DNA of 32,000 nucleotides from Vulcanisaeta distributa DSM 14429 (GCF_000148385.1 NC_014537.1:90001-122000), one strand, 5' to 3'. Counted from the first letter of the stretch, positions 428 through 28,771 are shown. The notes: a model not told the origin generated them from the sequence alone. Translations and numbers: made by a program.

Positions 428-1955
428 TCAGTCTCGTGGACTCTGAGCAGGGTACTGGGCAGTTCAGAGTTATTATCGCTCTTGCTATCTTTTCTGCCTT
501 CCTTTCGTTGTTCTCACTTATTGCATCCTCATACATTTTTCTCAATGCGCCACAGATTTTAATTAAGAGCTCTGGGCTCCTCTTTGCTTGTCCTTTATTT
601 ATATAGATTTCAAATCCTCCACGGGCCTCCCTCAACTTAGCTTCATACCCAGCCCTTCTTAGGGCTTCCTGAATCGCCCTGGCATCCTCAAGCCTTCTAC
701 GCCAAGCCCTAAGCTCCACATAACCGGCGTCTCTCACGTTTATGTTCATCCATACGTCATCAATAATCTCAATCATTGACCTACCGTGTGGCTTAACCCT
801 CATACTAGCCAGTGTAATTAAGTTCCTGAGTTTATCCGCATCGGGTAATTGACTAAGGCACTCAACTATTACTTTAACCAACGCATTATTAAGCCACTCC
901 TTGGCAAGCGCAACAGCCTTGGAGCTACGTAGCTCATACCGTTTAGTATTTCTACTACCGTAATTCTTGAAGCCAAGACTTTCCATCATCTCAATAATAC
1001 CTTTCCATAATTCGTGTTTTGAACCGCCAATTGTGATATCGATAACCTTCTTTTTCCTCTTGATATAGATGTTACCATCCCCGAGAACAGCGAATAATAA
1101 GAACGTTAAGAATTCGTCATAGTTAAGCTTGAGGACTTTCTTGGTGATCTTAGCCTTGCTTTTAAACTTAGTCTTATGGCTAATAGCCCTTAATTCCCAC
1201 TTAACCTTTACATCGCCATTGTTGAGATTCACACCATCTATGGCCAGGCGGACCTTACCTGGGTAAGCCAGCGAGAAAACTATAATTTGCCAAAGATGGT
1301 TAGTGTTCATTTTTGGATAGCCATCCTTATCGATCGTACCATCCGTTAAAAGTAAGCCGTACTCTGCTGGCTTTAATAAATTATTGCTAAGTAATCTAGG
1401 TGCAACTATGTATATGCCTTTGCGTCCGATTAGCCGTAGCGTTATTGTTATACTACCCGATACAGCGACTCTCTCGATAGCGACAGAAAGATGTCTTGCG
1501 CGTAAATTTACAATGAAACTTTTGTTTTTATTTAATGCATCGCCTTTTATAAGAACTGTTACTTCACCCTTCATCAATTTAACTATTAGTTCTTCAAGTT
1601 CACTTCGGTACTTGGATAACCATGCCTCTCTTACTTGCTGTGCTAGTTCTCTAATCCCCATACTTAACTCATACATGGTCTTCCTTAGCTCGGCAACACT
1701 TCTATCATTACCCGCTTCGATATTCGTCTCGATCTTCTTTAGCCATTCATTTAGTGCACTAATAGTGTGGTCAAATGGTGTTATTAAATTGCTGAGCAGA
1801 ATAGCTTTGTGCTTCTCAACGCGATTAAGGAATTCGTTTATTAATTTCATTACTTCCTCGGTAGTTCTTGGATCGCCGACTTCCTCGTCACACCTTAACC
1901 TCTTCTCGTCCTTGACTTTAATGTCCCAGCAAATCCTCAAGCCATTAAGAGCCAT
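411..1955 (-). CDS. Free-standing double-motif LAGLIDADG-like protein with an N-terminal coiled-coil region and a basic C-terminal extension; possibly the PaREP2-type repeated family of Thermoproteales
   Basis: A 514-aa ORF carries two LAGLIDADG-like motifs about 90 aa apart: AEYGLLLTDGTIDKDGY and FLTFLLFAVLGDGNIYI. An AT-rich non-coding region lies upstream (1956-2283). The ORF is not in frame with any flanking host protein. The PaREP2 assignment is from memory only and is unverified. Confidence 0.55.
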   Translation of the reverse strand: MALNGLRICWDIKVKDEKRLRCDEEVGDPRTTEEVMKLINEFLNRVEKHKAILLSNLITPFDHTISALNEWLKKIETNIEAGNDRSVAELRKTMYELSMGIRELAQQVREAWLSKYRSELEELIVKLMKGEVTVLIKGDALNKNKSFIVNLRARHLSVAIERVAVSGSITITLRLIGRKGIYIVAPRLLSNNLLKPAEYGLLLTDGTIDKDGYPKMNTNHLWQIIVFSLAYPGKVRLAIDGVNLNNGDVKVKWELRAISHKTKFKSKAKITKKVLKLNYDEFLTFLLFAVLGDGNIYIKRKKKVIDITIGGSKHELWKGIIEMMESLGFKNYGSRNTKRYELRSSKAVALAKEWLNNALVKVIVECLSQLPDADKLRNLITLASMRVKPHGRSMIEIIDDVWMNINVRDAGYVELRAWRRRLEDARAIQEALRRAGYEAKLREARGGFEIYINKGQAKRSPELLIKICGALRKMYEDAISENNERKAEKIARAIITLNCPVPCSESTRLKILPL

Positions 1956-2253
1956 GAAACATCCATAAGATTATTTACCAACTAAATTTAATAAACTACT
2001 ACCAACCTAATACTGAATTAACTTAAGCATGAGATTGAAAATAACGAAAACTCAAGGGCAGCAAACACAACACCACGTATTAGGCATAAGCCTCATAATG
2101 CATGACATTAAAGGTAATGATTATTATTAGCAGGACTTAGTGTTTCGTGAATAACCCCTTACCTTACTCTTTCGTTATTAAGTGAGTATAACCAGAACCT
2201 TGGGACACTTAAGGACTGACTTTGCTACTTCCAGTATGATACACACCTTATAC

Positions 2254-2262
2254 TTTAAATAA
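2254..2262 (+). promoter_or_regulatory. TATA-box-like element (tttaaataa) about 26 nt upstream of the ATG at 2284, consistent with a leaderless transcript
   Basis: An AT-rich octamer sits at the spacing typical of crenarchaeal leaderless promoters. Position is the only evidence. Confidence 0.35.
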
Positions 2263-2283
2263 TGCACTTTTAATGATTAGGCT

Positions 2284-2805
2284 ATGCCAATCGTGAGGGT
2301 TGGGGATAAGGTACCGAGGATTGGTAGGAACGTCTTCATAGCGAGTACGGCCTACGTAATTGGGGACGTGGTTATTGGGGATAATGTGAGTATCTGGCCT
2401 CACGCGGTCATTAGGGGTGATGAGGACAGTATTGTGATTGGGGATAACTCAAATATTCAGGATGGCGCGGTGATACATACGGATGTTGGGTTTCCCGCTA
2501 GGATTGGTCGTGGCGTAACAATTGGGCATAGGGCAATTGTTCACGGAGCCACTGTGGAAGATGAGGTGATAATTGGTATGGGCGCCATTGTGCTAAATGG
2601 CGCGGTGATTGGTAGTGGGAGTATTGTTGGGGCTGGCGCTGTTGTTACCCAGGGAACTAAGATACCGCCTAACAGCATCGTTGTTGGTGTGCCGGCTAAG
2701 GTCGTTAGGCAGGCCACGGATGCCGATAGGGAGTACATTAGGAATAATTACCAGGCCTATCTCAGGCTTGCGAGGATGTACATGGACAATGGAGTTAACC
2801 TATAA
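2284..2805 (+). CDS. Gamma-class carbonic anhydrase / hexapeptide-repeat (LbH) family protein (Cam/YrdA/PaaY-like)
   Basis: The 173-aa ORF has left-handed beta-helix hexapeptide repeats: VIGDVVIGDNVSIWPHAVIRGDEDSIVIGDNSNIQDGAVIHTD..GRGVTIGHRAIVHGATVEDEVIIGMGAIVLNGAVIGSGSIVGAGAVV. Its His residues are in the positions expected for gamma-CA. Confidence 0.85.
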   Translation: MPIVRVGDKVPRIGRNVFIASTAYVIGDVVIGDNVSIWPHAVIRGDEDSIVIGDNSNIQDGAVIHTDVGFPARIGRGVTIGHRAIVHGATVEDEVIIGMGAIVLNGAVIGSGSIVGAGAVVTQGTKIPPNSIVVGVPAKVVRQATDADREYIRNNYQAYLRLARMYMDNGVNL

Positions 2806-2807
2806 CC

Positions 2808-3920
2808 ATGACATGCATATCATTAATAACCGACGGCATTGATGGCATCACGGGCCCCATACGGGTCGCCTACTTACTTGGCCGTTTCCTCATTGGGCTG
2901 GGCGTTGACGTTAATGTGGTTTCTCCATACGTGAGGGAGGATGTGAGGAGGGATTTTGAATACGTTGGTATCAAAGTAAGGGACTTGGGAATTAAGCCCC
3001 TGCTCCCTGGCCAGGCTGGGCATCTCTCGATATGGTTAATAAATGGTGTAAAGGGGTTGATTAATTACGGCGATGATTGTTTATCAATCAATCTATCCTT
3101 CGAATTACCAATACCATCAACCGTATTCTACGCACAGGGCTACGTGGGTGATCTACTCAGGGATTTAAGCCAGGTATTCCCCATTTACTATAGATTGAGT
3201 TATTACATCGCGCTACCGTTGATTAATACAGCTGATTCCACCTACCATAGGGCTCTTTCATTCTCTAAATACGTAATAGCTAACTCGAGATATTCAGCGG
3301 AGGCCGTAATGTCGAGGGGCGTTAGGGTTTGGGGCGTGATAAACCCACCCGTGGATACGGAATTATTCAAGCCCGTGCCCAACCCCACACAGGATTATGT
3401 ATTAACCTACGTGGGTAAGGAAACCCAGTTTGACGTATTGAAGGCCATGGCCAACGCTGGAATTAGGATAGTGGCCTTTGGCTCTAAGGTTCCCTGGATG
3501 CCGCGCTGGTTCATTAAGCATCAGAACATTGATTATAGGGGTAGGGTTAGCGATGATGAGTTGGCTAGGTTATACGCCAACGCCAGGTTCACAGTTTTCC
3601 CATTCATACATGAACCGTTTGGGTATGTACCTGTTGAGTCCATGGCGTGTGGAACCCCGGTCCTTACCTATGATAAGCAGGGGCCTGGTGAGACGGTCAT
3701 TAATAATGAGACGGGTTGGTTGGTGAGAGGTCCGGAGGATCTTATTAGGCTGGCGATTAAGTTGTGGTTTAATGGTTATGATGAATCAATGAGGATTAAG
3801 GCTAGGGAGAGGGCTATGGCGTTCAGCGTTACTAAGATAATCAATGAATGGCTAGGTATAATTAATAGGTCTATTCATAGTAGGGACGAGGATAAAAATA
3901 ATAAGGAACTAGAATATTGA
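2808..3920 (+). CDS. GT-B fold glycosyltransferase, family 4-like
   Basis: The 370-aa ORF has a C-terminal E-x7-E region, FIHEPFGYVPVESMACGTPVLTYDKQGPGETV, typical of GT4. It starts 2 nt after the preceding gene. Confidence 0.8.
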   Translation: MTCISLITDGIDGITGPIRVAYLLGRFLIGLGVDVNVVSPYVREDVRRDFEYVGIKVRDLGIKPLLPGQAGHLSIWLINGVKGLINYGDDCLSINLSFELPIPSTVFYAQGYVGDLLRDLSQVFPIYYRLSYYIALPLINTADSTYHRALSFSKYVIANSRYSAEAVMSRGVRVWGVINPPVDTELFKPVPNPTQDYVLTYVGKETQFDVLKAMANAGIRIVAFGSKVPWMPRWFIKHQNIDYRGRVSDDELARLYANARFTVFPFIHEPFGYVPVESMACGTPVLTYDKQGPGETVINNETGWLVRGPEDLIRLAIKLWFNGYDESMRIKARERAMAFSVTKIINEWLGIINRSIHSRDEDKNNKELEY

Positions 3921-5362: not shown

Positions 5363-6475
5363 CTAGGTCGACTTAACCTTGATCATCTTCTCCCTTAGGC
5401 TTTGAACTAACTTCTCATCAGCCCTAGCCAGCGCCTCGGCCAGTAACCTGGATGCGTTGAGCGCATCATTAATGCTCAGCAACTCCACGGGGCTATGAAC
5501 ATACCTAGTGGGTATTGATATCGTGGTCGCCGGTATGCCATCCCTCCTAAAGGCGATCCCCAGGGCATCCGTCGTACCGCCAATCAACACCTCCAGTTGA
5601 TATGGTATCTTCAAATCCTCGGCAACAGACACAAGGAAGTTCGTTAATGCCGGATGGGCAATGAACACATTGCCCCTACCACCATCCATAACCTTAATCG
5701 CTGGTCCCTTACCAACCCTAGTCACGAACTCACGCTCATTGACGCCAGGCACGTCGGCCGCAATCGTAGTATCAAGGGCAATCGCGAAGTCCGGGTAGAC
5801 CCTATCAGCAGCGATCTGAGCACCCCTAAGACCAACCTCCTCCTGAACCGTGGCCACGAAGTACACGGTAACCTCACTGCCTCTTAACTGCCTCGCAGCC
5901 CACAACATCACGGCCACACCAACCCTATCATCAAACGCCTTACCCGTGACAATACCCCCGTTAAGTACCTCGAAATCCCTATCGAGGACAGCCACGGAAC
6001 CAACCCTAACACCCAGTTTCCTAACCTCATCATCGCTTGACGCTCCAATGTCTATGAATAGGTCCTTGAGTTCAGGGGCCTCCCTCTCCTTGCCAGGTGG
6101 TGTAACGTGAGGCGGCCTACTACCGATGACGCCCTTGATCTTCTTACCGTCAACAGTCTTAATAATGACTCTCTGCCCAACCAACGTCACTTCATTCCAA
6201 CCACCAATTGCCCTGAATCGTAAGAACCCATTCTTATCAATATTATCGATTAATAGCCCAATCTCATCAATGTGCGCAGCAACCATGGCCTTCAAGTCCC
6301 TCCTACTCCCGTACCGAACCCCAATCACATTACCCCACTTATCAACCATTAAATCATCGACGTAAGGCTCCAACTCCTTAATAACCAGGTCCCTAACCTC
6401 ATCCTCAAAACCCGAAGGCCCAAAGGCCTCACTCAACCTCCTGAGTAGGTCTATAAACTCCTGCGAGCTCATCAA
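5363..6475 (-). CDS. M42 family metallo-aminopeptidase (TET / FrvX-like)
   Basis: The 370-aa ORF has an N-terminus LLRRLSEAFGPSGFEDEVRDLV..DKWGNVIG and the motifs AHIDEIG, KAFDDRVG and VQEEVGLRGA, all typical of M42. Confidence 0.85.
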   Translation of the reverse strand: MMSSQEFIDLLRRLSEAFGPSGFEDEVRDLVIKELEPYVDDLMVDKWGNVIGVRYGSRRDLKAMVAAHIDEIGLLIDNIDKNGFLRFRAIGGWNEVTLVGQRVIIKTVDGKKIKGVIGSRPPHVTPPGKEREAPELKDLFIDIGASSDDEVRKLGVRVGSVAVLDRDFEVLNGGIVTGKAFDDRVGVAVMLWAARQLRGSEVTVYFVATVQEEVGLRGAQIAADRVYPDFAIALDTTIAADVPGVNEREFVTRVGKGPAIKVMDGGRGNVFIAHPALTNFLVSVAEDLKIPYQLEVLIGGTTDALGIAFRRDGIPATTISIPTRYVHSPVELLSINDALNASRLLAEALARADEKLVQSLREKMIKVKST

Positions 6476-8098: not shown

Positions 8099-10438
8099 TT
8101 AAATACTATGAAGTAGGCGTGAATATACCCTCATAAGCTCAAGACCAGCCTTAACCCCCATCTCAATACCCTGTATATTCAACCCCAATAGAAACCTCTC
8201 CACCTCATCCTCCTGACCAAGGCCTATGAATGGTATTGAGTACGTAAATACCCTAGACAATACGCCGGGGTCCCCATAGGCCTCTATGAAGCGTTTATAA
8301 TTATTCATTAGCCACCCTAAGTTTATGTCACGTACATACGGGTTCCTGGAGCCAACCGTGAAGAATTGAAGATCCTGCCTCTTAACCTCACCTGACATCA
8401 GGAAGTCCAGGGACTTCCTATACTCATCCCTATCGGTAACGCTCAGCATGGCAGCCAACACCCTATTCCTATCCTCATCGGACACTAACGTCCTGTAAAG
8501 CCCCCTAAGGGTCTCGAAGGGTCTCTCACCAACCACCGCGTAGGCGTTGACGACGGCCTGCCTCATGACGGGGCTCAGGCCCTGGTAATCCCTAATTAAA
8601 CCGGCTATTGACATTGCGTAATCCTCATCAACCAATGCACGGCGGGAAAGCACCAACTCCCTAACATCATCCATTCCCGAGACACCCTCAAGCAATGTGC
8701 TCTGGGCCCTCAGGTACTCCGTGAATACCTCCTTAACGGCCGAGGGCTTTATCGAGTATAAGGTACCCAGTTGGGTTATTACAGTTGTCGTAATTAGGTA
8801 ATTAACTATGTCGCTCACGGACCTAACCAGGCTCAGGTACTCACTTAGGCTAATGGAGCCCTGAAGCAGGTGGGCATAGGCATCATTTATCACACTCCAC
8901 CTCTCGAAGTGATTAGACGCATTGCTCAATGCCCTGGACCAATCAGTGTACCTAACCCTGTAATAACCACTACCATTAACATTCAGGAACAGGGATGCTG
9001 ACGACACGCTGAGCGTTAATGTATCGTGCTCCATGAGTACGGTATTCACCGCACCATTAAACCTATAAACAATGGGTATGGGCCAGGTATCTGCGGTATT
9101 ACCACTGAGTATGAACCTTGACTGCCTAAGCGTAATGCCCTTGCCTGGCTCCTCAACGACTATGACCGGGTGCCCTGGCTTATCAACCCAGGCCTTCATG
9201 ACCTTGGTCACTGGCTTACCACTAACCTCCTCAATACTACTCCACAGGTCATCCTCGGTGGCGTTTGAGTATGCGTACTTCCTGAGGTAATTACTAAGGC
9301 CCTTCCTGAACTCCTCCTCGCCAACGTAGTTCTCAAGCATCCTAAGGAGTGAGGCGCCCTTGCCATAGCTAATATCATCAAATATCTCAAAGGCCTCCTC
9401 CTCACTACTAATGGGTACGTGGACGGGGTGCGTACTTACCAATGAGTCCCTGAGCATGGAGCCGACCGTCTCGTCAGCCAGGAACCTATACCAAACACCC
9501 CACCCTGGGAAGAGCCTATCCATGGCCTTATAACTCATGAATGTGGCGAAGGACTCATTAAGCCAGAGGTCATCCCACCAACGCATCGTGACCAAGTTAC
9601 CAAACCATTGATGGGCAATCTCATGGGCAACAACCTCGGCAACCCTCCTCCTAGTCAACTCAGTACTACCCCTACCCACCAGCAGTGCGGTCTCCCTGAA
9701 CGTAATGGCGCCCCAATTCTCCATAGCCCCAGCCGCAAACTCAGGAACGTGAATCAAATGAAGCTTGGGCAGTGGGTACGGTATCCCGAAGTAACCACTG
9801 TAGAATTCAAGCACGCCCTTAGCAACATCAAGCGCAAACCTACCATCCTCAACCCTATCCTTAAGTGGCGTGGCGAAGATTACGTCAACATTACCAACCC
9901 TATCCCTGGACTCAAAGAACCTACCAATGCCCAGGTAGAGGAGGTATGTGGATATCCTGGGGGTCTCCGCAAACTCAAAGACCTTCCAGGGACCATCCCA
10001 GTAAACCCTAACAGGCGGCGTGTTGAATATCACGTCGTAATCACCATCAACCAAGACCCGAACCCTAAACCTAGCCTTAGCAGCAGGGTTATCAACACAG
10101 GGTATGAAGTACCTAGCGCCCGTGGGCTCGAACTGCGTCGTTATCATGTAGCCGTCCCTATACGGAGCCCTATAAATACCCAACAACCTATCACCAACCC
10201 TACCATTAAACAAAACCCTAACAACACCACTAATGGGACCCCGAACCCTCAAAACCCTACCATCGTAGGAATAATCAACAGGCCTACCATCAACCTCAAC
10301 AGACCTAATACCAAGATCAACAGCATTAAGCAATAAATCACCCACAGAACTAACATGAACATCCACAACACCCTCATACGTCAAATCCCCAAACCTAAAC
10401 CTAAGCTCAACCACGTACAACTCAACACCAAGCGACAC
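8099..10438 (-). CDS. M1 family zinc aminopeptidase (tricorn-interacting factor F2/F3-like)
   Basis: The 779-aa ORF has the exopeptidase motif GAMENWG and the zinc site HEIAHQWFGNLVTMRWWDDLWLNESFA (HExxH-x18-E). Confidence 0.9.
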   Translation of the reverse strand: MSLGVELYVVELRFRFGDLTYEGVVDVHVSSVGDLLLNAVDLGIRSVEVDGRPVDYSYDGRVLRVRGPISGVVRVLFNGRVGDRLLGIYRAPYRDGYMITTQFEPTGARYFIPCVDNPAAKARFRVRVLVDGDYDVIFNTPPVRVYWDGPWKVFEFAETPRISTYLLYLGIGRFFESRDRVGNVDVIFATPLKDRVEDGRFALDVAKGVLEFYSGYFGIPYPLPKLHLIHVPEFAAGAMENWGAITFRETALLVGRGSTELTRRRVAEVVAHEIAHQWFGNLVTMRWWDDLWLNESFATFMSYKAMDRLFPGWGVWYRFLADETVGSMLRDSLVSTHPVHVPISSEEEAFEIFDDISYGKGASLLRMLENYVGEEEFRKGLSNYLRKYAYSNATEDDLWSSIEEVSGKPVTKVMKAWVDKPGHPVIVVEEPGKGITLRQSRFILSGNTADTWPIPIVYRFNGAVNTVLMEHDTLTLSVSSASLFLNVNGSGYYRVRYTDWSRALSNASNHFERWSVINDAYAHLLQGSISLSEYLSLVRSVSDIVNYLITTTVITQLGTLYSIKPSAVKEVFTEYLRAQSTLLEGVSGMDDVRELVLSRRALVDEDYAMSIAGLIRDYQGLSPVMRQAVVNAYAVVGERPFETLRGLYRTLVSDEDRNRVLAAMLSVTDRDEYRKSLDFLMSGEVKRQDLQFFTVGSRNPYVRDINLGWLMNNYKRFIEAYGDPGVLSRVFTYSIPFIGLGQEDEVERFLLGLNIQGIEMGVKAGLELMRVYSRLLHSI

Positions 10439-10616
10439 ATGGCTAACAAAGTATACACATTATTAAATATAATGCCAGCCAGGTCAAAAATACGGAGAAC
10501 AAACGGGCCTATTGGCGCAGTTAATACCAATGCTTCCAGAGGCGTCTCTATCTTGTCGTCTTTCATCATACTAAAAGCATATATCTACAAAATGTAATAA
10601 TGGCTTAAGAAGAACA

Positions 10617-12026
10617 ATGAGTAAAGAGCAGGTAAACGTCGAGTTATACGTAAGGGACTTCTCGGTATTCGAAGAGACGAGATTAATGCTGAAGCCACTC
10701 ACCATATTGATAGGTAGGAATAGCGTGGGGAAGAGCCATTTATTATACCTAATTTGGCTACTAATGAGGCTTGAACCAAACGTACCAGCCTTAGTCGAGG
10801 TTGATGAAAACCTGCGCAAAATGATAATGGGCCTAAAGGAGGCGGTATTCAAGGGTGAGGATGAGTTACGTAAGGCAATAATCAGTATTATTAGGGAAAT
10901 AATTCGGGGATACTCATATTTCCTAACCGAATCCTTCAAGAAAACCTTTGGGGTAGGATCGGTAGAGCTTTCGAGAAATAAGCAGATGAAGATATTGGTG
11001 CAGGGAAGCGATAAATGCAAAATTGAATTTAAGCTTTTAGAGAATAAGATTGAGACGAGTTACATTGAATGTGAAGATCTATTTAACAATATTAACGTAG
11101 GGAGATTAGAGAAATTGGGTTTAAAAGAACTAGAAATGGAAAATAATAGGTTTATTGTTCTTTGGTCAGAGTCAGAAAGTTGTAGGTTTGCAGCGGGCGT
11201 ACGTCTTGATACAAATAACATTATGTTTAATTATATTTCCTTAAATTCAATAGTAAAATATACTGTAAGTGCTTGTTTTGAACCATGGTTTTTAGGTGAT
11301 GATTATGTTGACTTTTTTGTTGATGGTAGGGCGGGGCTTATTAGATCGATTATGAAACCTCAGGTAAAGATTGAGGGTCTTCTTGAGCCCGATGAGGTAT
11401 TTAGGTATAAGTACTTTAAGATGATGGAGGGTGCATATGGGGGTATTAAGGGTATTGAGTTGATTAGGGATTTCCTCAATGAGCTTGGTGTTAGGGATAT
11501 TAAGGTGGAGTTTGAGAGGGGCTTATATGTGCCCTATGTGGTCACGTGGAATGGTTACGTAATACCGCTTGATATAGCGCCTTCTGGGGTTAGGGAATCA
11601 CTTTTGCCAGTATTATCCTTAATTAATGGTGAGAGTAGGGTTGTGATTATTGAAGAGCCGGAGGCTCATCTTCATCCCAGGGCTATTACCAGGTTGGCTA
11701 GGGTTATTGCCAGGGCGGTTAACAGGGGTAAGTGGGTAATACTATCGACTCACAGTGATTACCTGCTCTACGGGTTGAGCAACCTTATTGAGGCTAGTGG
11801 ACTCAGTGATGAGGAACTGAAGAGGCGTGGGTTGGACAGGAGCGATGTGTTAAGCCCGGATAAGGTTGCCGTGTACCTGGTCAAGGCTGAGCCGGAGAAG
11901 AGCGCCTCGGTTCTTGAGAGGATTCCCGTGAGCATTGATGGTATTGAGGAGGAGGAATTCAGTAAGGTGGCCACGGAGCTGGCTGAGGAATCCTCACTCA
12001 TCAGAAGTATGAAGGCGAGGAGTTAA
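10617..12026 (+). CDS. ABC-like ATPase of the AAA_15/AAA_21 type, possibly with a DUF3696-like C-terminus
   Basis: The ORF has Walker A LIGRNSVGKSHLL, a signature-like APSGVRESLL, a Walker B/D-loop VVIIEEPEAHLHP and an H-loop LSTHSDYLL. The C-terminal VAVYLVK..SVLERIPVSIDGIEEEEF resembles the DUF3696 tail as I remember it. Confidence 0.75.
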   Translation: MSKEQVNVELYVRDFSVFEETRLMLKPLTILIGRNSVGKSHLLYLIWLLMRLEPNVPALVEVDENLRKMIMGLKEAVFKGEDELRKAIISIIREIIRGYSYFLTESFKKTFGVGSVELSRNKQMKILVQGSDKCKIEFKLLENKIETSYIECEDLFNNINVGRLEKLGLKELEMENNRFIVLWSESESCRFAAGVRLDTNNIMFNYISLNSIVKYTVSACFEPWFLGDDYVDFFVDGRAGLIRSIMKPQVKIEGLLEPDEVFRYKYFKMMEGAYGGIKGIELIRDFLNELGVRDIKVEFERGLYVPYVVTWNGYVIPLDIAPSGVRESLLPVLSLINGESRVVIIEEPEAHLHPRAITRLARVIARAVNRGKWVILSTHSDYLLYGLSNLIEASGLSDEELKRRGLDRSDVLSPDKVAVYLVKAEPEKSASVLERIPVSIDGIEEEEFSKVATELAEESSLIRSMKARS

Positions 12027-12028
12027 CT

Positions 12029-12385
12029 ATGAAGGGTAGATGTAGGATTAAGCGTGCTGATTGCCGGCTCATTGACTTAGACGAGTATGTTGATAACATT
12101 ACTGGTCATGGTGATAAGCCACCCCACGCGGATTACGCATTAATATGCGGTGGTAGAGTTATCATAGTTGAGGAGGTCGACGGCAAGGCCGAGCTCAGAG
12201 ATGGCAGGAAGGTTGAAGAGAGTGAAAAACTGCTCAGGGAGCGCGGTGAAATTACCGTGCAAAACGTGCTTAAAGTTGTTCACGCTAGGGCTGGGGCCGA
12301 CTCAATGGTTGCGAGGGTCTTCCGTAGTGCTAAAATTTTCCTGGTAACCTGTTGCGATAAATTAAGTGAGATAGTCCGGGAGTAA
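12029..12385 (+). CDS. 118-aa protein coupled to the ATPase; possible minimal PD-(D/E)XK / NucS-RecB-like nuclease core
   Basis: Its ATG is 2 nt after the ATPase stop. The core HADYALICGGRVIIVEEVDGKAELRDGRKVEESEKLL has an acidic residue, then a hydrophobic strand ending in EE-x-D-G-K. Cys pairs occur at C5/C12 and C108/C109. The motif spacing is not canonical. Confidence 0.45.
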   Translation: MKGRCRIKRADCRLIDLDEYVDNITGHGDKPPHADYALICGGRVIIVEEVDGKAELRDGRKVEESEKLLRERGEITVQNVLKVVHARAGADSMVARVFRSAKIFLVTCCDKLSEIVRE

Positions 12386-12729: not shown

Positions 12730-13164
12730 ATGTTGGAGACTAGGTATGAGACCGAGCTTGCATTGAGGTTCCTTGAGGCTGGTCTGTATAGGAATACCGC
12801 TGGTAAGGCGTTTCAGGCATGGAAGGCCTTGTTGGCTACGTTGGCCATTAGCTATGCCGATGAACTAGCCAGGAGGTTTAAGGGGTTAGAAGGACTAGGG
12901 ATGGTAAGAGGGTTAGTTTGTCGGACTTCTAGTGGCGTTCATGCTCACGGACTACATGCTGGCCGTGGCCAAGGCCCTGGAACAAATAACGGATAAGCCC
13001 CTCGTCGACTTAACAAACACTGCAATAAATTTGCATGAATTTCAATACAATGGACTTGACGAGGCCGGGTATTTAGTAGATAGCCAACCATAGACCTGGT
13101 CATAGGCGACATTAAGAGGGTGGTTAATGTGGTTCAGCAAATCCTAAGATCAATACAGGCGTAG
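12730..13164 (+). pseudogene. PaREP1-family (HEPN-like clan) gene, disrupted by several frame changes
   Basis: Frame 1 reads MLETRYETELALRFLEAGLYRNTAGKAFQAWKALLATLAISYADELARRFKG and then degenerates. A second frame continues FVGLLVAFMLTDYMLAVAKALEQITDKPLVDLTNTAINLHEFQYNGLDEAGYLVDSQP*. A third frame ends IDLVIGDIKRVVNVVQQILRSIQA* with its stop at 13162-13164. The family call is from memory of PaREP1 sequences. Confidence 0.55.
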
Positions 13165-13328: not shown

Positions 13329-13417
13329 TGGTGCCGGGGCCGGGATTTGAACCCGGGCCCCCTTGCGGGGACGGACTTAGCAGGCCCGCGCCTTGGACCT
13401 GGCTCGGCCACCCCGGC
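13329..13417 (-). tRNA. tRNA-Ser(GCU): tRNA-Ser (anticodon GCU) with a long variable arm; CCA appears to be encoded
   Basis: The reverse complement is GCCGGGGTGGCCGAGCCAGGTCCAAGGCGCGGGCCTGCTAAGTCCGTCCCCGCAAGGGGGCCCGGGTTCAAATCCCGGCCCCGGCACCA. It folds with acceptor GCCGGGG/CCCCGGC, anticodon stem CGGGC/GTCCG around loop CTGCTAA, variable stem CCCC-GCAA-GGGG and T arm CCGGG-TTCAAAT-CCCGG. Confidence 0.9.
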
Positions 13418-17274: not shown

Positions 17275-18261
17275 TTATTTAACCTCCTGGATGCTTGTGC
17301 TTTTCCAGTCATCGCCTATCGTTAGCCTCAGCCTAACCGGCTCGGCCCTAGCATTCTCACAAGTCACCTGGACCTCAACCTCGTAAGTACACTTGGTCAG
17401 GCAGTCCTGAACCCTATTGAGACAGCCAAGCAGGAACACGTCCGGCCTCGCAAACCACGCATATGGTGGTGAACCACCGCATACGGTTGCCATATTTAGG
17501 TTATTGGCGTAAAATGGCTTACTACCATTGTCGAGGGGCATTACGATTAGGTTGAATATCCTAACATCATTGGGATTAATATCAACCCTATCCCTATTGC
17601 CCGCCCAAACCAGGTCAACCCAGTCATTGTAATCAGGACTTAAGCTACACCCAGCGGAACCACTTAATGAAGCCCTAACCTGCGCCACGCAATTCTTAGC
17701 AGCGCCACGGCCAATATTCCTAACACGAAGCCTAAGGTAACCGACAGCATTCTGTTGGGCAGGACGATTGGTGCCGCAGAGATCTGGGAACGTGTTAAGG
17801 ATGGGCTTGTCCTGCACGATCTCAATACGCAGATCAGGCGATGTTGAGACTGCTCTGAAGTACTCCTGAAGACCAATAGCCATTAAAGTACCACCACTAC
17901 CAACAATGGGACCCGCAGGGGTGACGTAGGAACTACCTGGAGTAAACAGCATCACGAAGCCCATGATCAGCAGAAACACGCCAAAGTCGGAAATAATAGC
18001 ATGCCAAACATTGCCATCATAAGATAACCACATGGCAAGAATTAATATAACTATGCCCACTATAATGAATGCAGCCTTCACTAATGAGATCATTACTAAG
18101 TCTATCAAACTCATATGAGATCCATTACCGTAAACCGTAACGAAACTCGAAATGAGTCCAAAACCCATAAAAATACCGCTAATTGCAGAATAAAATATTG
18201 TTAAAAAGGAATAATTTATTACCACGTGGTGAAATAAGTTTATGAGCACTCCAATACACAC
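17275..18261 (-). CDS. Membrane-anchored protein with a C-terminal beta-rich (CARDB-like?) domain, function unknown
   Basis: The N-terminal 130 aa or so are hydrophobic helices. The C-terminal soluble domain has the beta-sandwich-like pattern YLRLRVRNIGRGAAKNCVAQV ... VRIFNLIVMP ... YEVEVQVTCENARAEPVRLRLTI. The ORF has a GTG start and may continue the 18179-18475 ORF through a frameshift. Confidence 0.6.
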   Translation of the reverse strand: MCIGVLINLFHHVVINYSFLTIFYSAISGIFMGFGLISSFVTVYGNGSHMSLIDLVMISLVKAAFIIVGIVILILAMWLSYDGNVWHAIISDFGVFLLIMGFVMLFTPGSSYVTPAGPIVGSGGTLMAIGLQEYFRAVSTSPDLRIEIVQDKPILNTFPDLCGTNRPAQQNAVGYLRLRVRNIGRGAAKNCVAQVRASLSGSAGCSLSPDYNDWVDLVWAGNRDRVDINPNDVRIFNLIVMPLDNGSKPFYANNLNMATVCGGSPPYAWFARPDVFLLGCLNRVQDCLTKCTYEVEVQVTCENARAEPVRLRLTIGDDWKSTSIQEVK

Positions 18262-18475
18262 TTATAAGATATATATTGATGAAAATAATTAAAACAATAA
18301 TAGCTGCGAAAACGGACCTGAATGAGGATGGAAGAGGTAATTGTACTATCGTAATACTTATACCTATACTTATAACCGATAAAAGCAATATGAATGCGAA
18401 TAATATTGTAAATACTAATAGTAATATTGTAAAAATCCAATCTGGTATTCTTAGGCGTCTTCTTAACTGCTGCAT
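18179..18475 (-). CDS. Small 2-3 TM membrane ORF; possibly the displaced N-terminus of the 17275-18261 gene
   Basis: This ATG-initiated 98-aa hydrophobic ORF overlaps the next ORF by 83 nt in a different frame. The DNA here is very AT-rich. Confidence 0.4.
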   Translation of the reverse strand: MQQLRRRLRIPDWIFTILLLVFTILFAFILLLSVISIGISITIVQLPLPSSFRSVFAAIIVLIIFINIYLISVYWSAHKLISPRGNKLFLFNNILFCN

Positions 18476-18665
18476 TTTGTAGGAGCGCAGTCTCCTCTTT
18501 TTAAGGATTTTAAACGCCCTATTTAGTGCTTATGTAACGCTTCAAAAGGAGCACGAGGTTGAGGTTGTTAGGCACTGTAATGCTTCGTTTCCATGCCTCG
18601 AACTTGAGGTTAGGGTTTCATGGCCTTACGTTGACGCTCAGCTGCAGGTACCGATTGGTGGCGTT

Positions 18666-19241
18666 TTGATGTGGGATGATGAGATTCTTGGTCAAGTCGC
18701 TTTTAAAAGCATCACATATATGCCTGGTAATGCATTAATGATCAGCAATGTCCTCAAAAATGCCATGTCTAGCGCTCGAATTACTGGTTTCGTACAATTG
18801 AGCCAACAAGCCATTGATCGTATTGAGGAGCTAAGGATGAGGAGTAATGGCGACATTACCATGAAGTTAAGCCCAAGCTTTGTATCCTTCTTCACCGATT
18901 ATAATAGGGGCGATACCGTGAAGGTTGTGCATACTGAGGGAAGTCAGGACTCATTTGTGGCTTTAAAGATGGCGTCCTCATTACTTAGCGGATCTGTTAC
19001 AACCATTACGTGCAACGTGAATGTGAATGGTTACAAGTGGGTCAGTGAGTTTTTACCCAAGCTCATAGGCTCCGGCTACCTAGTTATTGAGTTGCCGTTA
19101 TTACCAATGCCCAGTGACCTTGGTAAGGAGTTTAATGAGCACGTAATTGCGGTTGTTGAATCATTGAGGATAGCTAGGGATGAGCTTCATAAAAACCTAG
19201 ATAAGGGCTCAGCACTAACATCGATTAAAACGCCTTACTAA
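18666..19241 (+). CDS. Hypothetical protein (191 aa from TTG/ATG; the frame is open from 18482)
   Basis: The ORF has coding-like composition. The in-frame upstream extension (..EHEVEVVRHCNASFPCLELEVRVSWPYVDAQLQVPIGGVL) also looks coding but has no ATG, GTG or TTG. I recognise no motif. Confidence 0.5.
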   Translation: MMWDDEILGQVAFKSITYMPGNALMISNVLKNAMSSARITGFVQLSQQAIDRIEELRMRSNGDITMKLSPSFVSFFTDYNRGDTVKVVHTEGSQDSFVALKMASSLLSGSVTTITCNVNVNGYKWVSEFLPKLIGSGYLVIELPLLPMPSDLGKEFNEHVIAVVESLRIARDELHKNLDKGSALTSIKTPY

Positions 19242-21928: not shown

Positions 21929-22279
21929 TATCTGGCATGTTCGTGAATCACGCATTTGTGATAATCGATAATCACTTGTTGAGCGTGCTATGTACATTGT
22001 TAGGGTTATTCATCAGCACAATATTGGGCGGGGTTGCAAAGTCCAGGGATTACCTAAACATCCCTTAATGATTAATTGCAATAGTATTTTGCCAACGAAT
22101 CAACAAAGGAGTGCTGTGCATCGCCTTAGATACTAAAACTAGACTTTTCACACCTAGCTTAGTATTGGTCATTTAATAGTGAATCATTTAAGCTGTGACT
22201 CGCAATATATACATTAACGTTGTTGATTATATTGGATTAATTTGTTTACCGTAATCTGCATCCGTTTCGTGACTTATTC

Positions 22280-23389
22280 CTAGCTCTGGCACTTGAGGTT
22301 GTTTAGTGTCTTGAGTAGTTGGTTATAGTCTCCACCTTTTATTATACATTGTACCGTGCTTTCTAGTTGGTTCAATTTATTAACCGTTATGCATAGATTG
22401 AACCTTAATGGCCTTCTAGACCCCTCACCATGCACCGTAATCTCAAACACAAATTCAATATCCTTAGTGAGTATAAGGCATGCCCTGTATGGTCTTACTG
22501 ATGGATCGCTTGGTCCTCCACCGCCATACTCACTGTAGGGCATTATCAAGTACTTGTCATCACTCAGTTTCACGTAGTCAAATATTAACAGCCTATTCCT
22601 CTGCCCAGGGGAGATCGACGTTATGTGTTGATAATCAGTAAAGAACCAGGGTAATGGTAAGTCCTTTAAGATATCAAGAAACTCTTTAACAATATTGGTC
22701 AGGAAACTATTAGATTTCTTATTAGATTTCTCATTAGATTTCTCGATCTTCTCGGCATCAAGTAGTTTCTCGGTGAGTTTCTTCTTACTTATGACCTTAC
22801 TACGTAACCTGATACTAGGCCTTACCACGATCCTCTCGGGCAATGCCCAGGGAAGTGATTCACCAACTACATGGGGGTTAACCCTATTGGCGAGGTAATT
22901 TTGGCAATTAGGTGATTCAAGTATTTCCTTAATATGATTATACTTTTTTATATATTCATCAAATTTATTTCTGTGTAATAGGACGTCGCCGAGGTGGTAT
23001 TTTTCTTCGTTTCCTTTCTTAACCTTAATCGTCAATGATGCCTTAGCGTCTCTAATTATTGCATTGCCATCATTTATTATCATTGCTGAGATTCTACGCG
23101 TCGGATCAAAAACCTCAACATCAAGCCCAGGATCAACCTCACCGCCAATACCTAGGGACAACCTTAAGGTGCTCGTTGACGCATAGTATTTAACCAGGTC
23201 ATTACTTAGCACCGCAATTACCGAGATTAAGGCACCAATTATTGGGCCTGACACCTGTAGTATGTATTGGTGGTACTTCAATACGGGTTTATAAAGCGGC
23301 CCTAAAACAATTTGCGCAGGCACTATGAGAAGTAGGACTATGGCAAGCGATACAATGGCAATCACCAACAAAACAACACTACCCCTCAA
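22280..23389 (-). CDS. Membrane-anchored protein (2 N-terminal TM helices) with a beta-rich ectodomain and a Lys/Ser/Asn/Glu repeat linker; distant structural paralog of 17275-18261
   Basis: The TTG-started 369-aa ORF has the N-terminus VVLLVIAIVSLAIVLLLIV and the strands ISAMIINDGNAIIRDAKASLTI ... RNRLLIFDYVKL ... FVFEITVHGEGSRRPLRFNLCITV. It also has the repeat linker EKSNEKSNKKSN. Confidence 0.6.
   Translation of the reverse strand: MRGSVVLLVIAIVSLAIVLLLIVPAQIVLGPLYKPVLKYHQYILQVSGPIIGALISVIAVLSNDLVKYYASTSTLRLSLGIGGEVDPGLDVEVFDPTRRISAMIINDGNAIIRDAKASLTIKVKKGNEEKYHLGDVLLHRNKFDEYIKKYNHIKEILESPNCQNYLANRVNPHVVGESLPWALPERIVVRPSIRLRSKVISKKKLTEKLLDAEKIEKSNEKSNKKSNSFLTNIVKEFLDILKDLPLPWFFTDYQHITSISPGQRNRLLIFDYVKLSDDKYLIMPYSEYGGGGPSDPSVRPYRACLILTKDIEFVFEITVHGEGSRRPLRFNLCITVNKLNQLESTVQCIIKGGDYNQLLKTLNNLKCQS
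22709..22744. repeat. Three tandem 12-nt repeats (attagatttctY), coding for KSNE/KSNK repeats on the minus strand
   Basis: The sequence reads attagatttctt attagatttctc attagatttctc. Confidence 0.9.
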
Positions 23390-23499
23390 ACATGCCCACC
23401 CGAGAAGAAAATCTTACGCCATGACTTAATAAACCCATTTTTCAAAAGTAAAGGCAATACAAGGTTCACTAGGTATTAATATCCACTGCCTTATTCATT

Positions 23500-24225
23500 T
23501 TACTTTTCCTTCAATTTTGAAAAATACTCTTTACATACTTTTACTGGAATGGCAGTACATAAGGTTGTCAGTATGAATATTACTAGGATCATTATTAAGG
23601 TTATGAATAATAGGATCATGAATATCGCAATGAAACTTAGTAGGGCTGTTTGGGCCCAGTATGGTAGTTGGGGCATGTTTGATGGTAGGCTTGTTATGTT
23701 TCCTAGTACTTGTTGCGTGCTTGATTGTTGGGCTGTTGCGGTCATTACTACTAATATTACTGCCATGATTGCGATGAATAGTATTACCTGGAGGTAATAA
23801 GCCCTAGTGCCCCTACCCACTAAGCTCTCAAAATGCGCTTCAGATTTGCTCACGATTTTGTGGGCTTCCTCAGTCTCGTATGGGACATTTACATTGGCGC
23901 ACTTCTGTTCTATTTCCTCAATGCACTTAGCTCTCTCCACCTGGAAGTACCTAATCTTTATTGATAGTGCCATCATTGTAAGCACAAATATCAACAGAAT
24001 GAATAGTAACCCCAACTTCAGCATTATTGTTCCTGGACCTAGACCAGTTAGGTAGTGGTAAATCAGCGTTAGGACAACACCAACAACTGTCGCAGTGCCG
24101 AAGGGTATCTGCCAAAGCAAATTATCGTAATGCCTCCAATCCTCAACCAACCTCTCATAAACACGCATACCAAGCTCGTCGCATTTAAAGTGCTCGATAC
24201 GGCAATGTCTCAGCTCCTCACCCAC
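23500..24225 (-). CDS. Four-TM membrane protein with an N-terminal cytosolic helix and a central soluble loop, function unknown
   Basis: The 241-aa ORF starts at GTG, or at the ATG at residue 20. It has two TM pairs, GTATVVGVVLTLIY/LGLLFILLIFVLTMMAL and LQVILFIAIMAVILVVM/ALLSFIAIFMILLFITLIMILVIFIL. Confidence 0.55.
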   Translation of the reverse strand: MGEELRHCRIEHFKCDELGMRVYERLVEDWRHYDNLLWQIPFGTATVVGVVLTLIYHYLTGLGPGTIMLKLGLLFILLIFVLTMMALSIKIRYFQVERAKCIEEIEQKCANVNVPYETEEAHKIVSKSEAHFESLVGRGTRAYYLQVILFIAIMAVILVVMTATAQQSSTQQVLGNITSLPSNMPQLPYWAQTALLSFIAIFMILLFITLIMILVIFILTTLCTAIPVKVCKEYFSKLKEK

Positions 24226-28516: not shown

Positions 28517-28614
28517 ATGGTGGGCCCGCCGGGATTCGAACCCGGGACCTCCCGGTTATGAGCCTTACGCGGGGCCTTCGCCCCAGGGCGCTCTACCTGG
28601 CTAAGCTACGGGCC
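28517..28614 (-). tRNA. tRNA-Met/Ile2(CAU): tRNA with anticodon CAU (elongator Met or Ile2) carrying a 21-nt non-canonical intron in the 5' side of the anticodon stem; CCA encoded
   Basis: The reverse complement is GGGCCCGTAGCTTAGCCAGGTAGAGCGCCC[TGGGGCGAAGGCCCCGCGTAA]GGCTCATAACCGGGAGGTCCCGGGTTCGAATCCCGGCGGGCCCACCA. Removing the bracketed 21 nt (about 28564-28584) restores a perfect anticodon stem CCCGG/CCGGG around loop CTCATAA. The intron itself forms a GGGGC-GAAG-GCCCC hairpin. Confidence 0.85.
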
Positions 28615-28771
28615 CTAATGAAAGTGGTTTTATGGCAAATTTAAGCTTTTCGTCTCGGGAATCATTATGGGGTATAGTAATGGAACTTATGACATCCTGT
28701 TCTTGGATCATTATGTGTATAGCCTTGATTTTCTCGTGATGAATCCTTACATGAAATACCTAATTAATTAA

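Follow-up and report, generated by a model that had tools for sequence, protein, structure and literature searches.

What do two tightly coupled genes of the archaeon Vulcanisaeta distributa DSM 14429, one encoding an ATPase of 469 amino acids and the other a partner protein of 118 amino acids, do for their host? The genes lie in a stretch of 32,000 nucleotides (GCF_000148385.1, NC_014537.1:90001-122000), here called the window, and all positions and residue numbers refer to the whole window and to the V. distributa proteins. Each of the two proteins matches a database entry of V. distributa with 100% identity. An earlier note, made from the sequence alone, had proposed a candidate defense cassette of an ABC-like ATPase and a minimal nuclease-like protein and had recognized no named system in it. 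The reading favored here, with a probability of about 0.65, is that the pair is a nuclease-NTPase conflict module of the PD-T4-4/WonAB/PDC-M47 type, directed against viruses or mobile elements. Sequence comparison places it as a divergent archaeal branch within the PD-T4-4/WonAB class, homologous at the superfamily level, and not as an unrecognized kind of system: the ATPase finds its best match in PD-T4-4_A, the wider family of the partner matches PDC-M47B and PD-T4-4_B, and the architecture is the one described for WonAB (PMC12137116).

The first gene product is matched in Pfam by AAA_15 (2e-20) and AAA_21 (5e-18), and Pfam, PADLOC and Foldseek agree on the OLD/PARIS/Septu type to which it had been assigned. 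The four motifs on which that assignment was built (GRNSVGKS, PSGVRE, VVIIEEPEAHLHP and STHSDY) are all present and fall on invariant or near-invariant columns of an alignment of 49 family sequences with about 35% identity (Table 1), in which a DxR motif (D236/R238) is also invariant or nearly so. When the sequence is compared to solved structures, the Walker B stretch alone matches chains of OLD, GajA and UvrA. The AlphaFold (AF2) model of the ATPase (predicted local distance difference test, pLDDT, 88.3; predicted template modeling score, pTM, 0.90) consists of an ABC head, an insert at residues ~55-230 and a C-terminal extension formed by helices, a beta-hairpin (417-436) and a long helix (446-468). 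These three parts cover all 469 residues and include no fused nuclease domain. The best PDB matches of the model in Foldseek, at E-values of ~1e-10, are the heads of Rad50, PtuA (Septu, retron-Eco7), SMC and RecN.

A PADLOC scan of the ATPase matched 122 families. PD-T4-4_A ranked first (7.4e-29), followed by NsnB of Menshen (4e-25), AriA of PARIS (1e-23), PDC-M47A (1e-17), HEC-01A, and Old and GajA (~1e-11 to 1e-13). The match to the PD-T4-4_A profile comprises two stretches, residues 316-459 (profile positions 300-451 of 460) and a separate N-terminal one, and amounts to 99 bits, compared to 300-770 bits from end to end for bona fide members. BLASTP against bona fide PD-T4-4_A gave 24% identity over residues 235-462 (E 4e-13), with the C-terminal extension included, plus a P-loop segment. 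By score and identity, membership in PD-T4-4_A is thus at the level of the superfamily and not of the family. The PADLOC matches to AriA, GajA and Old end at residue ~383-390, just past the H-loop, whereas those to PD-T4-4_A, PDC-M47A and NsnB run on to residues 426-459, which marks the C-terminal extension as a feature of the latter group only. By analogy to the model of WonAB (PMC12137116), this extension is a candidate docking surface for the small partner. Taken together, the profile matches identify the protein as an OLD/PARIS/Septu-type ABC ATPase of the PD-T4-4_A/PDC-M47A/WonA-like class.

A search with the single sequence of the small partner found homologs in three Vulcanisaeta species alone, and the resulting view of an orphan protein was overturned by reading the genes downstream of the ATPase orthologs and by a profile search. 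Homologs of 117-164 amino acids with ~30% identity to the Vulcanisaeta partner lie 3' of ATPase orthologs in Thermofilum pendens, Staphylothermus hellenicus, Sulfurisphaera tokodaii, Pyrobaculum and three metagenomic Thermoproteota contigs. The profile search against 1.84 billion representatives returned 130 clusters (defined at 50% identity) at E<=1e-3, all of 50-150 amino acids. Conservation was counted over 76 representatives, which share ~30% identity. E48 is present in all 76, D35, D58, H85 and C108 in 75/76 each, and position 61, a lysine in Vulcanisaeta, is Lys or Arg in 70/76 (92%). Position 50 is Thr in 69/76 and Val in Vulcanisaeta, Thr and Val together accounting for 72/76. The two Cys pairs that the earlier note had pointed out exist in Vulcanisaeta and are specific to it; C108 is the only one of these cysteines kept as a family feature.

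The AF2 model of the partner, computed from an alignment of 13 sequences (pLDDT 91.7; pTM 0.86), has a beta-alpha-beta-beta-alpha-beta-alpha-beta-alpha topology, and the PD-(D/E)xK core fold (alpha-beta-beta-beta-alpha-beta) is contained in its 118 amino acids. No PDB entry was matched by Foldseek at E<=1e-3 and no solved structure was matched by sequence. The Foldseek ranking against the PDB is almost purely composed of PD-(D/E)xK proteins, with NucS/EndoMS first (E 4e-3, query TM-score, TMq, 0.52) and Nt.BspD6I, the nuclease domains of Cdn1/Can2/Card1, AF1548, Bax1, Hjc, LmuA and MspJI among the further matches. A structural search of BFVD agrees, with matches to Mrr, restriction endonuclease and VRR-NUC proteins.

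The connection to known nuclease families was established through distant relatives of the ATPase, which were collected at 80 genome loci from bacteria and archaea, with linkage scored over 82 loci. A local iterative hidden Markov model (HMM) search ties the crenarchaeal partner to open reading frames (ORFs) located immediately 3' of the ATPase gene, on the same strand, in 77-78/82 loci. The first bridging step of this search, to the partner at locus L006, was borderline (E 1e-3), and the two partner clades were therefore built separately and their profiles compared. With L006 excluded, hhalign aligned the crenarchaeal partner profile to the D…ExK partner family over 117 columns (96.1%, E 3e-9), and a second hhalign comparison gave 94.9% (E 4e-8). 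The distant family is characterized by the motif K-x-C-D … E-L-K-S-G … E-Q-L … r-C-G, with D and E invariant, and with K and three of the Cys nearly so; C159 is among the near-invariant positions. PDC-M47B is matched by 19/56 of its members (best E 3e-6), and of four PD-T4-4_B models the best is matched by 7/56 (best E 1.9e-5); HSDR_N and PDDEXK_9 are matched weakly, and hhalign of the family against PD-T4-4_B gave 36% (E 4e-4). Based on model and profiles, the 118-amino acid protein is a minimal PD-(D/E)xK-derived restriction-endonuclease-fold protein and the presumed effector of the pair. The earlier description of a stripped-down PD-(D/E)XK or NucS-like protein was borne out for the fold, by the top Foldseek match and the alignment to D…ExK, and not for the canonical lysine.

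Intermediate states of the active site were observed in two partners from metagenome-assembled genomes (MAGs), one of Thermoproteaceae that keeps the canonical E-C-K (L006:5392-5772) and one of Archaeoglobaceae with E-C-T and a retained EQI helix motif (L008:5355-5861). A partner ORF on an IMG/VR viral contig (L118:3367-3801) matches the bacterial-type profile (7.6e-10) as well as the crenarchaeal-type one (1.1e-5) and is thus another bridging sequence.

The main uncertainty concerns the activity of a site without the ExK lysine. In some PD-(D/E)xK enzymes this lysine is dispensable; BamHI, which has ExE, and BglII, which has ExQ, are active without it. In the crenarchaeal partner, K/R61 occupies the alignment column in which the canonical relatives have the Gln of their 'EQL' motif. 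From its position and conservation, K61 is a candidate relocated catalytic base, and candidates to stand in for the canonical Lys are K/R61, on the next helix, and K/R53. The near-invariance of D35, E48, D58, K/R61 and H85 argues for a working site. Alternatively, the small protein could be a catalytically dead adaptor with a restriction-enzyme fold, that is a nucleic acid binder or regulator, and the output would be ATPase-driven binding or sequestration of DNA or RNA, or recruitment of an effector encoded elsewhere. Such an adaptor fits less well with essentially invariant metal-binding acidic residues (D35, E48), with the retention of D58, K/R61, H85 and C108, which is unexpected in a decayed site, with the active lysine-free enzymes just mentioned, and with the lack of a third conserved gene that might supply the effector. 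It gains from the replacement of the ExK lysine by Thr or Val in most representatives, which recalls the inactive K71A variant of WonB (PMC12137116), from the reduction of the partner to a bare fold with weak Foldseek matches, and from the existence of non-catalytic restriction-enzyme-fold domains, such as the N-terminal domain of Rpb5, which is among the BFVD matches of the partner. On balance, a dead adaptor is considered unlikely but a serious rival, and an effector nuclease is preferred.

The linkage of the two genes is close throughout. In 10/10 crenarchaeal-type loci examined, the partner follows the ATPase gene, and the junctions overlap or leave 1-2 nucleotides; orthologs display a 4-nucleotide overlap (ATGA) in Pyrobaculum, an 8-nucleotide overlap in S. 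tokodaii and a 1-nucleotide gap in T. pendens. The junction in V. distributa reads GAGGAG-T-TAA-CT-ATG (GAGGAG at 12017-12022, TAA at 12024-12026, ATG at 12029), so that the Shine-Dalgarno (SD)-like GAGGAG of the partner gene is located within the 3' end of the ATPase gene. ORF calling and reading of this junction reproduced the ORF sizes, the coordinates and the 2-nucleotide distance from stop to start that had been claimed, and GAGGAG together with the 2-nucleotide spacer bears out the tight coupling. Among the three Vulcanisaeta species, dN/dS (the ratio of nonsynonymous to synonymous substitution rates) is 0.18-0.23 for the ATPase gene and 0.20-0.35 for the small gene; both ORFs are therefore functional coding genes under purifying selection.

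Four of the distant loci are without the partner family. Two of them have another D…ExK protein of ~200 amino acids after the ATPase (L050:4437-5054 and L075:3398-4051; 'DGILL…VELKRT' / 'IIECKRT'), and in one the downstream gene encodes a giant of 1079 amino acids that combines PHP and a UvrD-like helicase (L084:4504-7740). At two other loci, the ATPase gene is preceded as well as followed by an ORF of the partner family (L034:3280-3780 and 5512-5997; L038:2695-3210 and 5497-6012). The downstream copy in L038 is split into fragments, and the doubled ORFs suggest tandem or decaying systems.

The surroundings of the pair vary widely. The 112 ORFs flanking 56 loci matched 125 different Pfam families, none of them more than four times, and no recurrent third gene was detected across these 56 loci. 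A conserved third gene or an embedding in a larger system was rejected in view of these heterogeneous flanks. The pair is an autonomous two-gene accessory cassette with variable neighbors, as the earlier note had suspected for an accessory module. Crenarchaeal cassettes often adjoin PaREP1, HEPN-MNT, HepT-MNT, VapBC or PIN/MazE modules, and this company raises the question of whether the pair might be a selfish addiction module resembling toxin-antitoxin (TA) systems, in which the nuclease as toxin and the ATPase as antidote or regulator stabilize themselves or nearby DNA and have no antiviral role. The compact and autonomous nature of the pair, the Pfam label of AAA_21 ('putative AbiEii toxin, Type IV TA system') and the toxicity of overproduced WonB would fit. 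The toxicity of WonAB, however, requires WonA and its ATPase activity, and a simple antitoxin model was excluded experimentally (PMC12137116). The relatives PD-T4-4 and WonAB provide phage protection, and TA-like behavior and abortive-infection defense are not mutually exclusive. Addiction without defense is thus regarded as improbable, less likely than the dead adaptor, and defense remains the preferred function.

ATPase relatives also occur on viral contigs and as sole cargo of ~4-kb plasmids. Of the 65 viral loci at which ATPase relatives are encoded, only 3 include the partner family and none has a close crenarchaeal-type ATPase, so that carriage of the pair by archaeal viruses was dismissed. 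On a metagenomic Thermoproteota contig with a crenarchaeal-type pair, another, distinct ATPase gene (AAA_15/AAA_21/SMC_N; L159:10729-11556) follows ~6 kb downstream, past a PaREP1 gene. The occurrence on small cargo plasmids and viral contigs and the unrelated neighborhoods in different lineages are not what would be expected from a housekeeping pair for DNA repair or recombination, comparable to Rad50-Mre11, SbcCD or NucS, in which the ATPase finds lesions or ends that the small nuclease processes. Such a role is suggested by the top PDB matches of both models, Rad50 and SMC/RecN heads for the ATPase and the repair nuclease NucS/EndoMS for the partner, and by the stable position beside housekeeping genes in three Vulcanisaeta species. 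Yet the Rad50 and SMC matches reflect a generic ABC head without coiled-coil insertion, and the nearest relatives by sequence are the defense ATPases PD-T4-4_A, NsnB, AriA and those of the PDC and HEC families. A repair function is very improbable and ranks, like addiction, below the adaptor.

The assignment to a conflict module draws directly on homology, obligate linkage, intact ATPase motifs, the D/E/D/K/H/C constellation, purifying selection and variable neighborhoods. Several observations weigh against it. The canonical ExK lysine is gone from the partner, which has V50 in its place, and the equivalent K71 of WonB is essential; for this reason the partner could be inactive or use other chemistry. 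No PADLOC, Pfam or NCBIfam model matches the partner, every Foldseek E-value, in the PDB as in BFVD, is 3e-3 or worse, and hhalign of the crenarchaeal partner profile against one genuine PD-T4-4_B was not significant (0.1% probability), so that the link to PD-T4-4_B is transitive, via the intermediate distant partner family. Kinship with WonAB follows a statement in PMC12137116 and not a sequence comparison with WonA/WonB (AWB73975.1/AWB73976.1) or SHI83489.1/SHI83462.1. The experimental precedent comes from bacterial relatives, the archaeal members being known from sequence and models. Finally, several loci lie amid housekeeping genes and not in defense islands, the left flank is constant across the three Vulcanisaeta species, where the pair is not visibly mobile, and no att-like repeats, including repeats of the tRNA-Ser, surround the Vulcanisaeta cassette. 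The earlier note had itself named, among others, two observations that would speak against its proposal. One was a match to a named system, which exists at the superfamily level, with a partner undetected by current models; the other concerned conserved residues, of which the ExK lysine is absent and the acidic ones are present.

Given the homology to WonAB and PD-T4-4, we infer the same working logic for the Vulcanisaeta pair, including complex formation, nuclease activity, a trigger, a substrate and a defense phenotype. The ABC ATPase would dimerize head-to-head on ATP and, by means of its variable insert (residues ~55-230), serve as sensor and switch, while its family-specific C-terminal extension would hold the 118-amino acid partner. 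Once triggered, presumably by viral infection, the ATPase would bind or hydrolyze ATP and thereby permit the partner to cleave nucleic acid, and this cleavage would halt the virus or the infected cell by abortive infection or dormancy. In Thermoproteota, the effector is pared down to the bare fold, with loss of the bacterial N-terminal Cys-rich extension, exchange of the ExK lysine for Thr/Val and a Lys/Arg at the position of the 'EQL' Gln. A defense function is suggested by sequence relationship and by analogy to the bacterial systems. It is conceivable, although the odds are somewhat against it, that the Thermoproteota clade (~130 clusters) is a distinct archaeal subtype of WonAB/PD-T4-4 unseen by current models and contains the smallest known ATPase-licensed restriction-enzyme-fold nuclease. 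Its site would be rewired (ExK Lys to Thr, Lys/Arg on alpha-2, D58/H85/C108), it would act by abortive infection or dormancy against crenarchaeal viruses and, by analogy to WonAB, it might cut RNA (tRNA or rRNA) instead of DNA.

The positions of all features are compiled in Table 1. The flanking M1 peptidase gene, decayed PaREP1 gene and tRNA-Ser were found as described before. The A/T-rich, TATA-like element AAAAGCATATATCT, 31-44 nucleotides upstream of the ATPase start codon, is a candidate promoter of the operon as judged by its sequence and position. The pair adjoins the M1 peptidase gene also in V. souniana and Vulcanisaeta sp. JCM 16161, and the right-hand neighbors differ in V. souniana. 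Recent integration targeted to the tRNA-Ser is unsupported, given the lack of an att-like direct repeat of the tRNA and the position common to three species. The PaREP1 remnant is frameshifted and consists of two overlapping frames (12730-12996 and 12932-13093); in Pyrobaculum, T. pendens and Vulcanisaeta sp. JCM 16161, the PaREP1 genes beside the orthologous pair are intact. The G+C content falls to 0.378 at 10501-11500, in the 5' half of the ATPase gene, compared to 0.49-0.52 on either side, in keeping with an accessory gene, and comparable troughs occur elsewhere in the window (~1000-2500, 18000-19000 and 22000-23500). A tRNA gene of 95-98 nucleotides on the minus strand at 28518-28615 reaches 50.6 bits with the tRNA model of Rfam, while ARAGORN assigns it no proper anticodon ('aa' at position 38); it is probably an archaeal tRNA with an intron.

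Table 1. Features of the two-gene cassette and its surroundings (positions in the window; last two rows, positions in the plasmid loci)
Feature	Position	Strand	Basis or remark
ATPase ORF, 469 amino acids, ATG start	10617..12026	+	ORF call and translation
Walker A / P-loop GRNSVGKS, residues 33-40	10713..10736	+	G33, N35, S36, G38, K39, S40 near-invariant (49-sequence alignment)
ABC signature-like PSGVRE, residues 322-327	11580..11597	+	S323, G324, R326, E327 invariant (49-sequence alignment)
Walker B and D-loop VVIIEEPEAHLHP, residues 342-354	11640..11678	+	E346, E347, P348, E349, H351, L352, H353 invariant (49-sequence alignment)
H-loop STHSDY, residues 377-382	11745..11762	+	H379 invariant; T378, S380, D381 near-invariant (49-sequence alignment)
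ATPase C-terminal extension, residues ~385-469	11769..12023	+	Secondary structure of model; extents of PADLOC and BLASTP matches
Coupling junction: SD-like GAGGAG, TAA stop, 2-nucleotide spacer, partner ATG	12017..12031	+	Read from sequence
Small partner ORF, 118 amino acids (~13 kDa), ATG start	12029..12385	+	ORF call and translation
Partner core strand pair HADYALICGGRVIIVEEV, residues 33-50	12125..12178	+	D35 = PD aspartate, E48 = Glu of ExK, V50 at position of ExK lysine (hhalign)
Partner start of helix alpha-2, D58 and K61	12200..12211	+	Conservation in 76 representatives; hhalign
Partner H85, end of strand 79-86	12281..12283	+	75/76
Partner C108	12350..12352	+	75/76; aligns with Cys of 'rCG' motif (hhalign)
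Candidate archaeal promoter of two-gene operon, TATA-like AAAAGCATATATCT	10573..10586	+	Sequence inspection
M1 peptidase gene, upstream flank	8099..10438	-	ORF call
PaREP1 remnant, downstream flank	12730..13093	+	Pfam PaREP1 4.5e-11 for first piece, 12730..12996
tRNA-Ser(GCT), downstream flank	13329..13417	-	tRNA prediction
Bona fide PD-T4-4 pair, E. coli pCUVM53-4 (L155)	497-2555		PADLOC A ~1e-232, B ~1e-94
Bona fide PD-T4-4 pair, K. pneumoniae pKPN6 (L156)	1622-3680		PADLOC A ~1e-232, B ~1e-94

To our knowledge, hyperthermophilic Crenarchaeota have few demonstrated anti-virus systems other than CRISPR, restriction-modification and toxin-antitoxin modules. The defense finders now in use are trained on bacterial sequences, and the PADLOC models miss the pair because its effector has diverged beyond their reach. 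The family of ~130 clusters provides a basis for a detection model, and the class of systems that combine an ABC ATPase with a restriction-enzyme-fold nuclease (PD-T4-4/WonAB) would be extended across domains of life. As a natural experiment, the clade may also tell how much rearrangement a PD-(D/E)xK active site tolerates under strong selection, through loss or relocation of the lysine. A 118-amino acid effector and a thermostable ATPase would be convenient structural material for understanding how ATPases license nucleases in the PD-T4-4/WonAB class.

Among the known systems, PARIS, Septu, Gabija and OLD share with the Vulcanisaeta pair the class of the ABC head and an ATPase sensor controlling a nuclease, and PtuA is one of the best structural matches. 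Their effectors, however, are Toprim (AriB, OLD, GajA) or HNH (PtuB) proteins and not of the restriction-enzyme fold, and the ATPase matches to PARIS, Gabija and OLD end at the H-loop, without the C-terminal extension. Neither a Toprim nor an HNH model of Pfam, PADLOC or NCBIfam matches the partner, and no helicase gene (GajB-like) is adjacent; identity with any of these four systems was rejected for the wrong type of effector. Menshen resembles the pair in its ABC ATPase NsnB, which was second in the PADLOC ranking and shares part of the C-terminal region. It differs in having three genes, with a ParB-DUF262 sensor (NsnA) and an inPIN nuclease (NsnC) (PMC12065111), neither of which is encoded at the Vulcanisaeta locus; with two genes only, flanked by the opposite-strand M1 peptidase gene and the PaREP1 remnant, the pair is not a Menshen system. 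NucS/EndoMS, Hjc and Can2/Card1 have the same alpha-beta-beta-(beta)-alpha-beta core, with an Asp at the start of one strand and a Glu in the next, as the partner, but the matches are of E 4e-3 or worse and TM ~0.5 with no detectable sequence similarity, and the partner lacks a DNA-binding N-terminal domain and the canonical Lys and has an obligate ATPase partner.

PDC-M47 is a computational PADLOC candidate only, and no paper text describing it was found. It is the system that the wider D…ExK partner family matches most often, and the match of the Vulcanisaeta ATPase to PDC-M47A takes in part of the C-terminal extension, whereas the Vulcanisaeta partner itself is without a PDC-M47B match. E. 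coli is protected by PD-T4-4 (Vassallo et al., 2022, PMC9519451), which assembles into higher-order complexes (bioRxiv 10.1101/2025.07.10.664194). Genuine PD-T4-4 pairs were found on ColE1/Rop-type plasmids of 4.3-4.5 kb as essentially sole cargo; their genes are annotated merely as 'AAA family ATPase' and 'hypothetical protein'. As in Vulcanisaeta, two co-directional genes are coupled with the A gene first (1-nucleotide gap on pCUVM53-4 and pKPN6, 2-nucleotide spacer in Vulcanisaeta), the first encodes an ABC ATPase of ~460-475 amino acids with the same C-terminal extension, and the second a small PD-(D/E)xK-type protein whose motifs follow the order K-x-C/A-D … (E/D)-x-[K] … Q/K-L. The low identity (~24%) and score (99 against 300-770 bits) of the ATPase set the two apart, as do the archaeal host and a partner of 118 instead of 210 amino acids without the ExK/DxK lysine. 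The Vulcanisaeta partner and three other crenarchaeal partners gave no PD-T4-4_B match at E<=1, and strict membership was rejected on the failure of every PD-T4-4_B model and on an ATPase far below true members.

WonAB, from the WASA-1 prophage of V. cholerae, depends for its function on both of its genes, on the motifs of the ATPase and on the lysine (K71) of the nuclease and acts by abortive infection, with translation shut off and genomic DNA left intact (PMC12137116). Its homologs are described as mainly from Gram-negative bacteria, with archaea unmentioned, and WonAB, PD-T4-4 and an 'OLD-ABC ATPase + novel REase' (restriction endonuclease) operon, for which the authors cite the 2020 ABC-ATPase survey of Krishnan, Burroughs, Iyer and Aravind, are stated to be related (PMC12137116). 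The crenarchaeal partner differs from WonB in lacking the essential lysine and the N-terminal Cys-rich segment. In other respects the two systems are alike. WonA belongs to the ABC ATPases and shows OLD-type motif deviations, and the corresponding residues of the Vulcanisaeta ATPase (K39, S323/G324, E346/E347, H379) fall on invariant or near-invariant columns of a protein modeled with an ABC head. WonB, a variant PD-(D/E)xK nuclease of only 16.1 kDa, is predicted to dock on WonA's dimerized C-terminal extensions (PMC12137116), and with a restriction-enzyme-fold protein of ~13 kDa encoded immediately downstream of the ATPase in Vulcanisaeta, the small size of the partner is not exceptional. In the bacterial and archaeal D…ExK partner family, the ExK lysine lies near residue 70-75, comparable to K71 of WonB.

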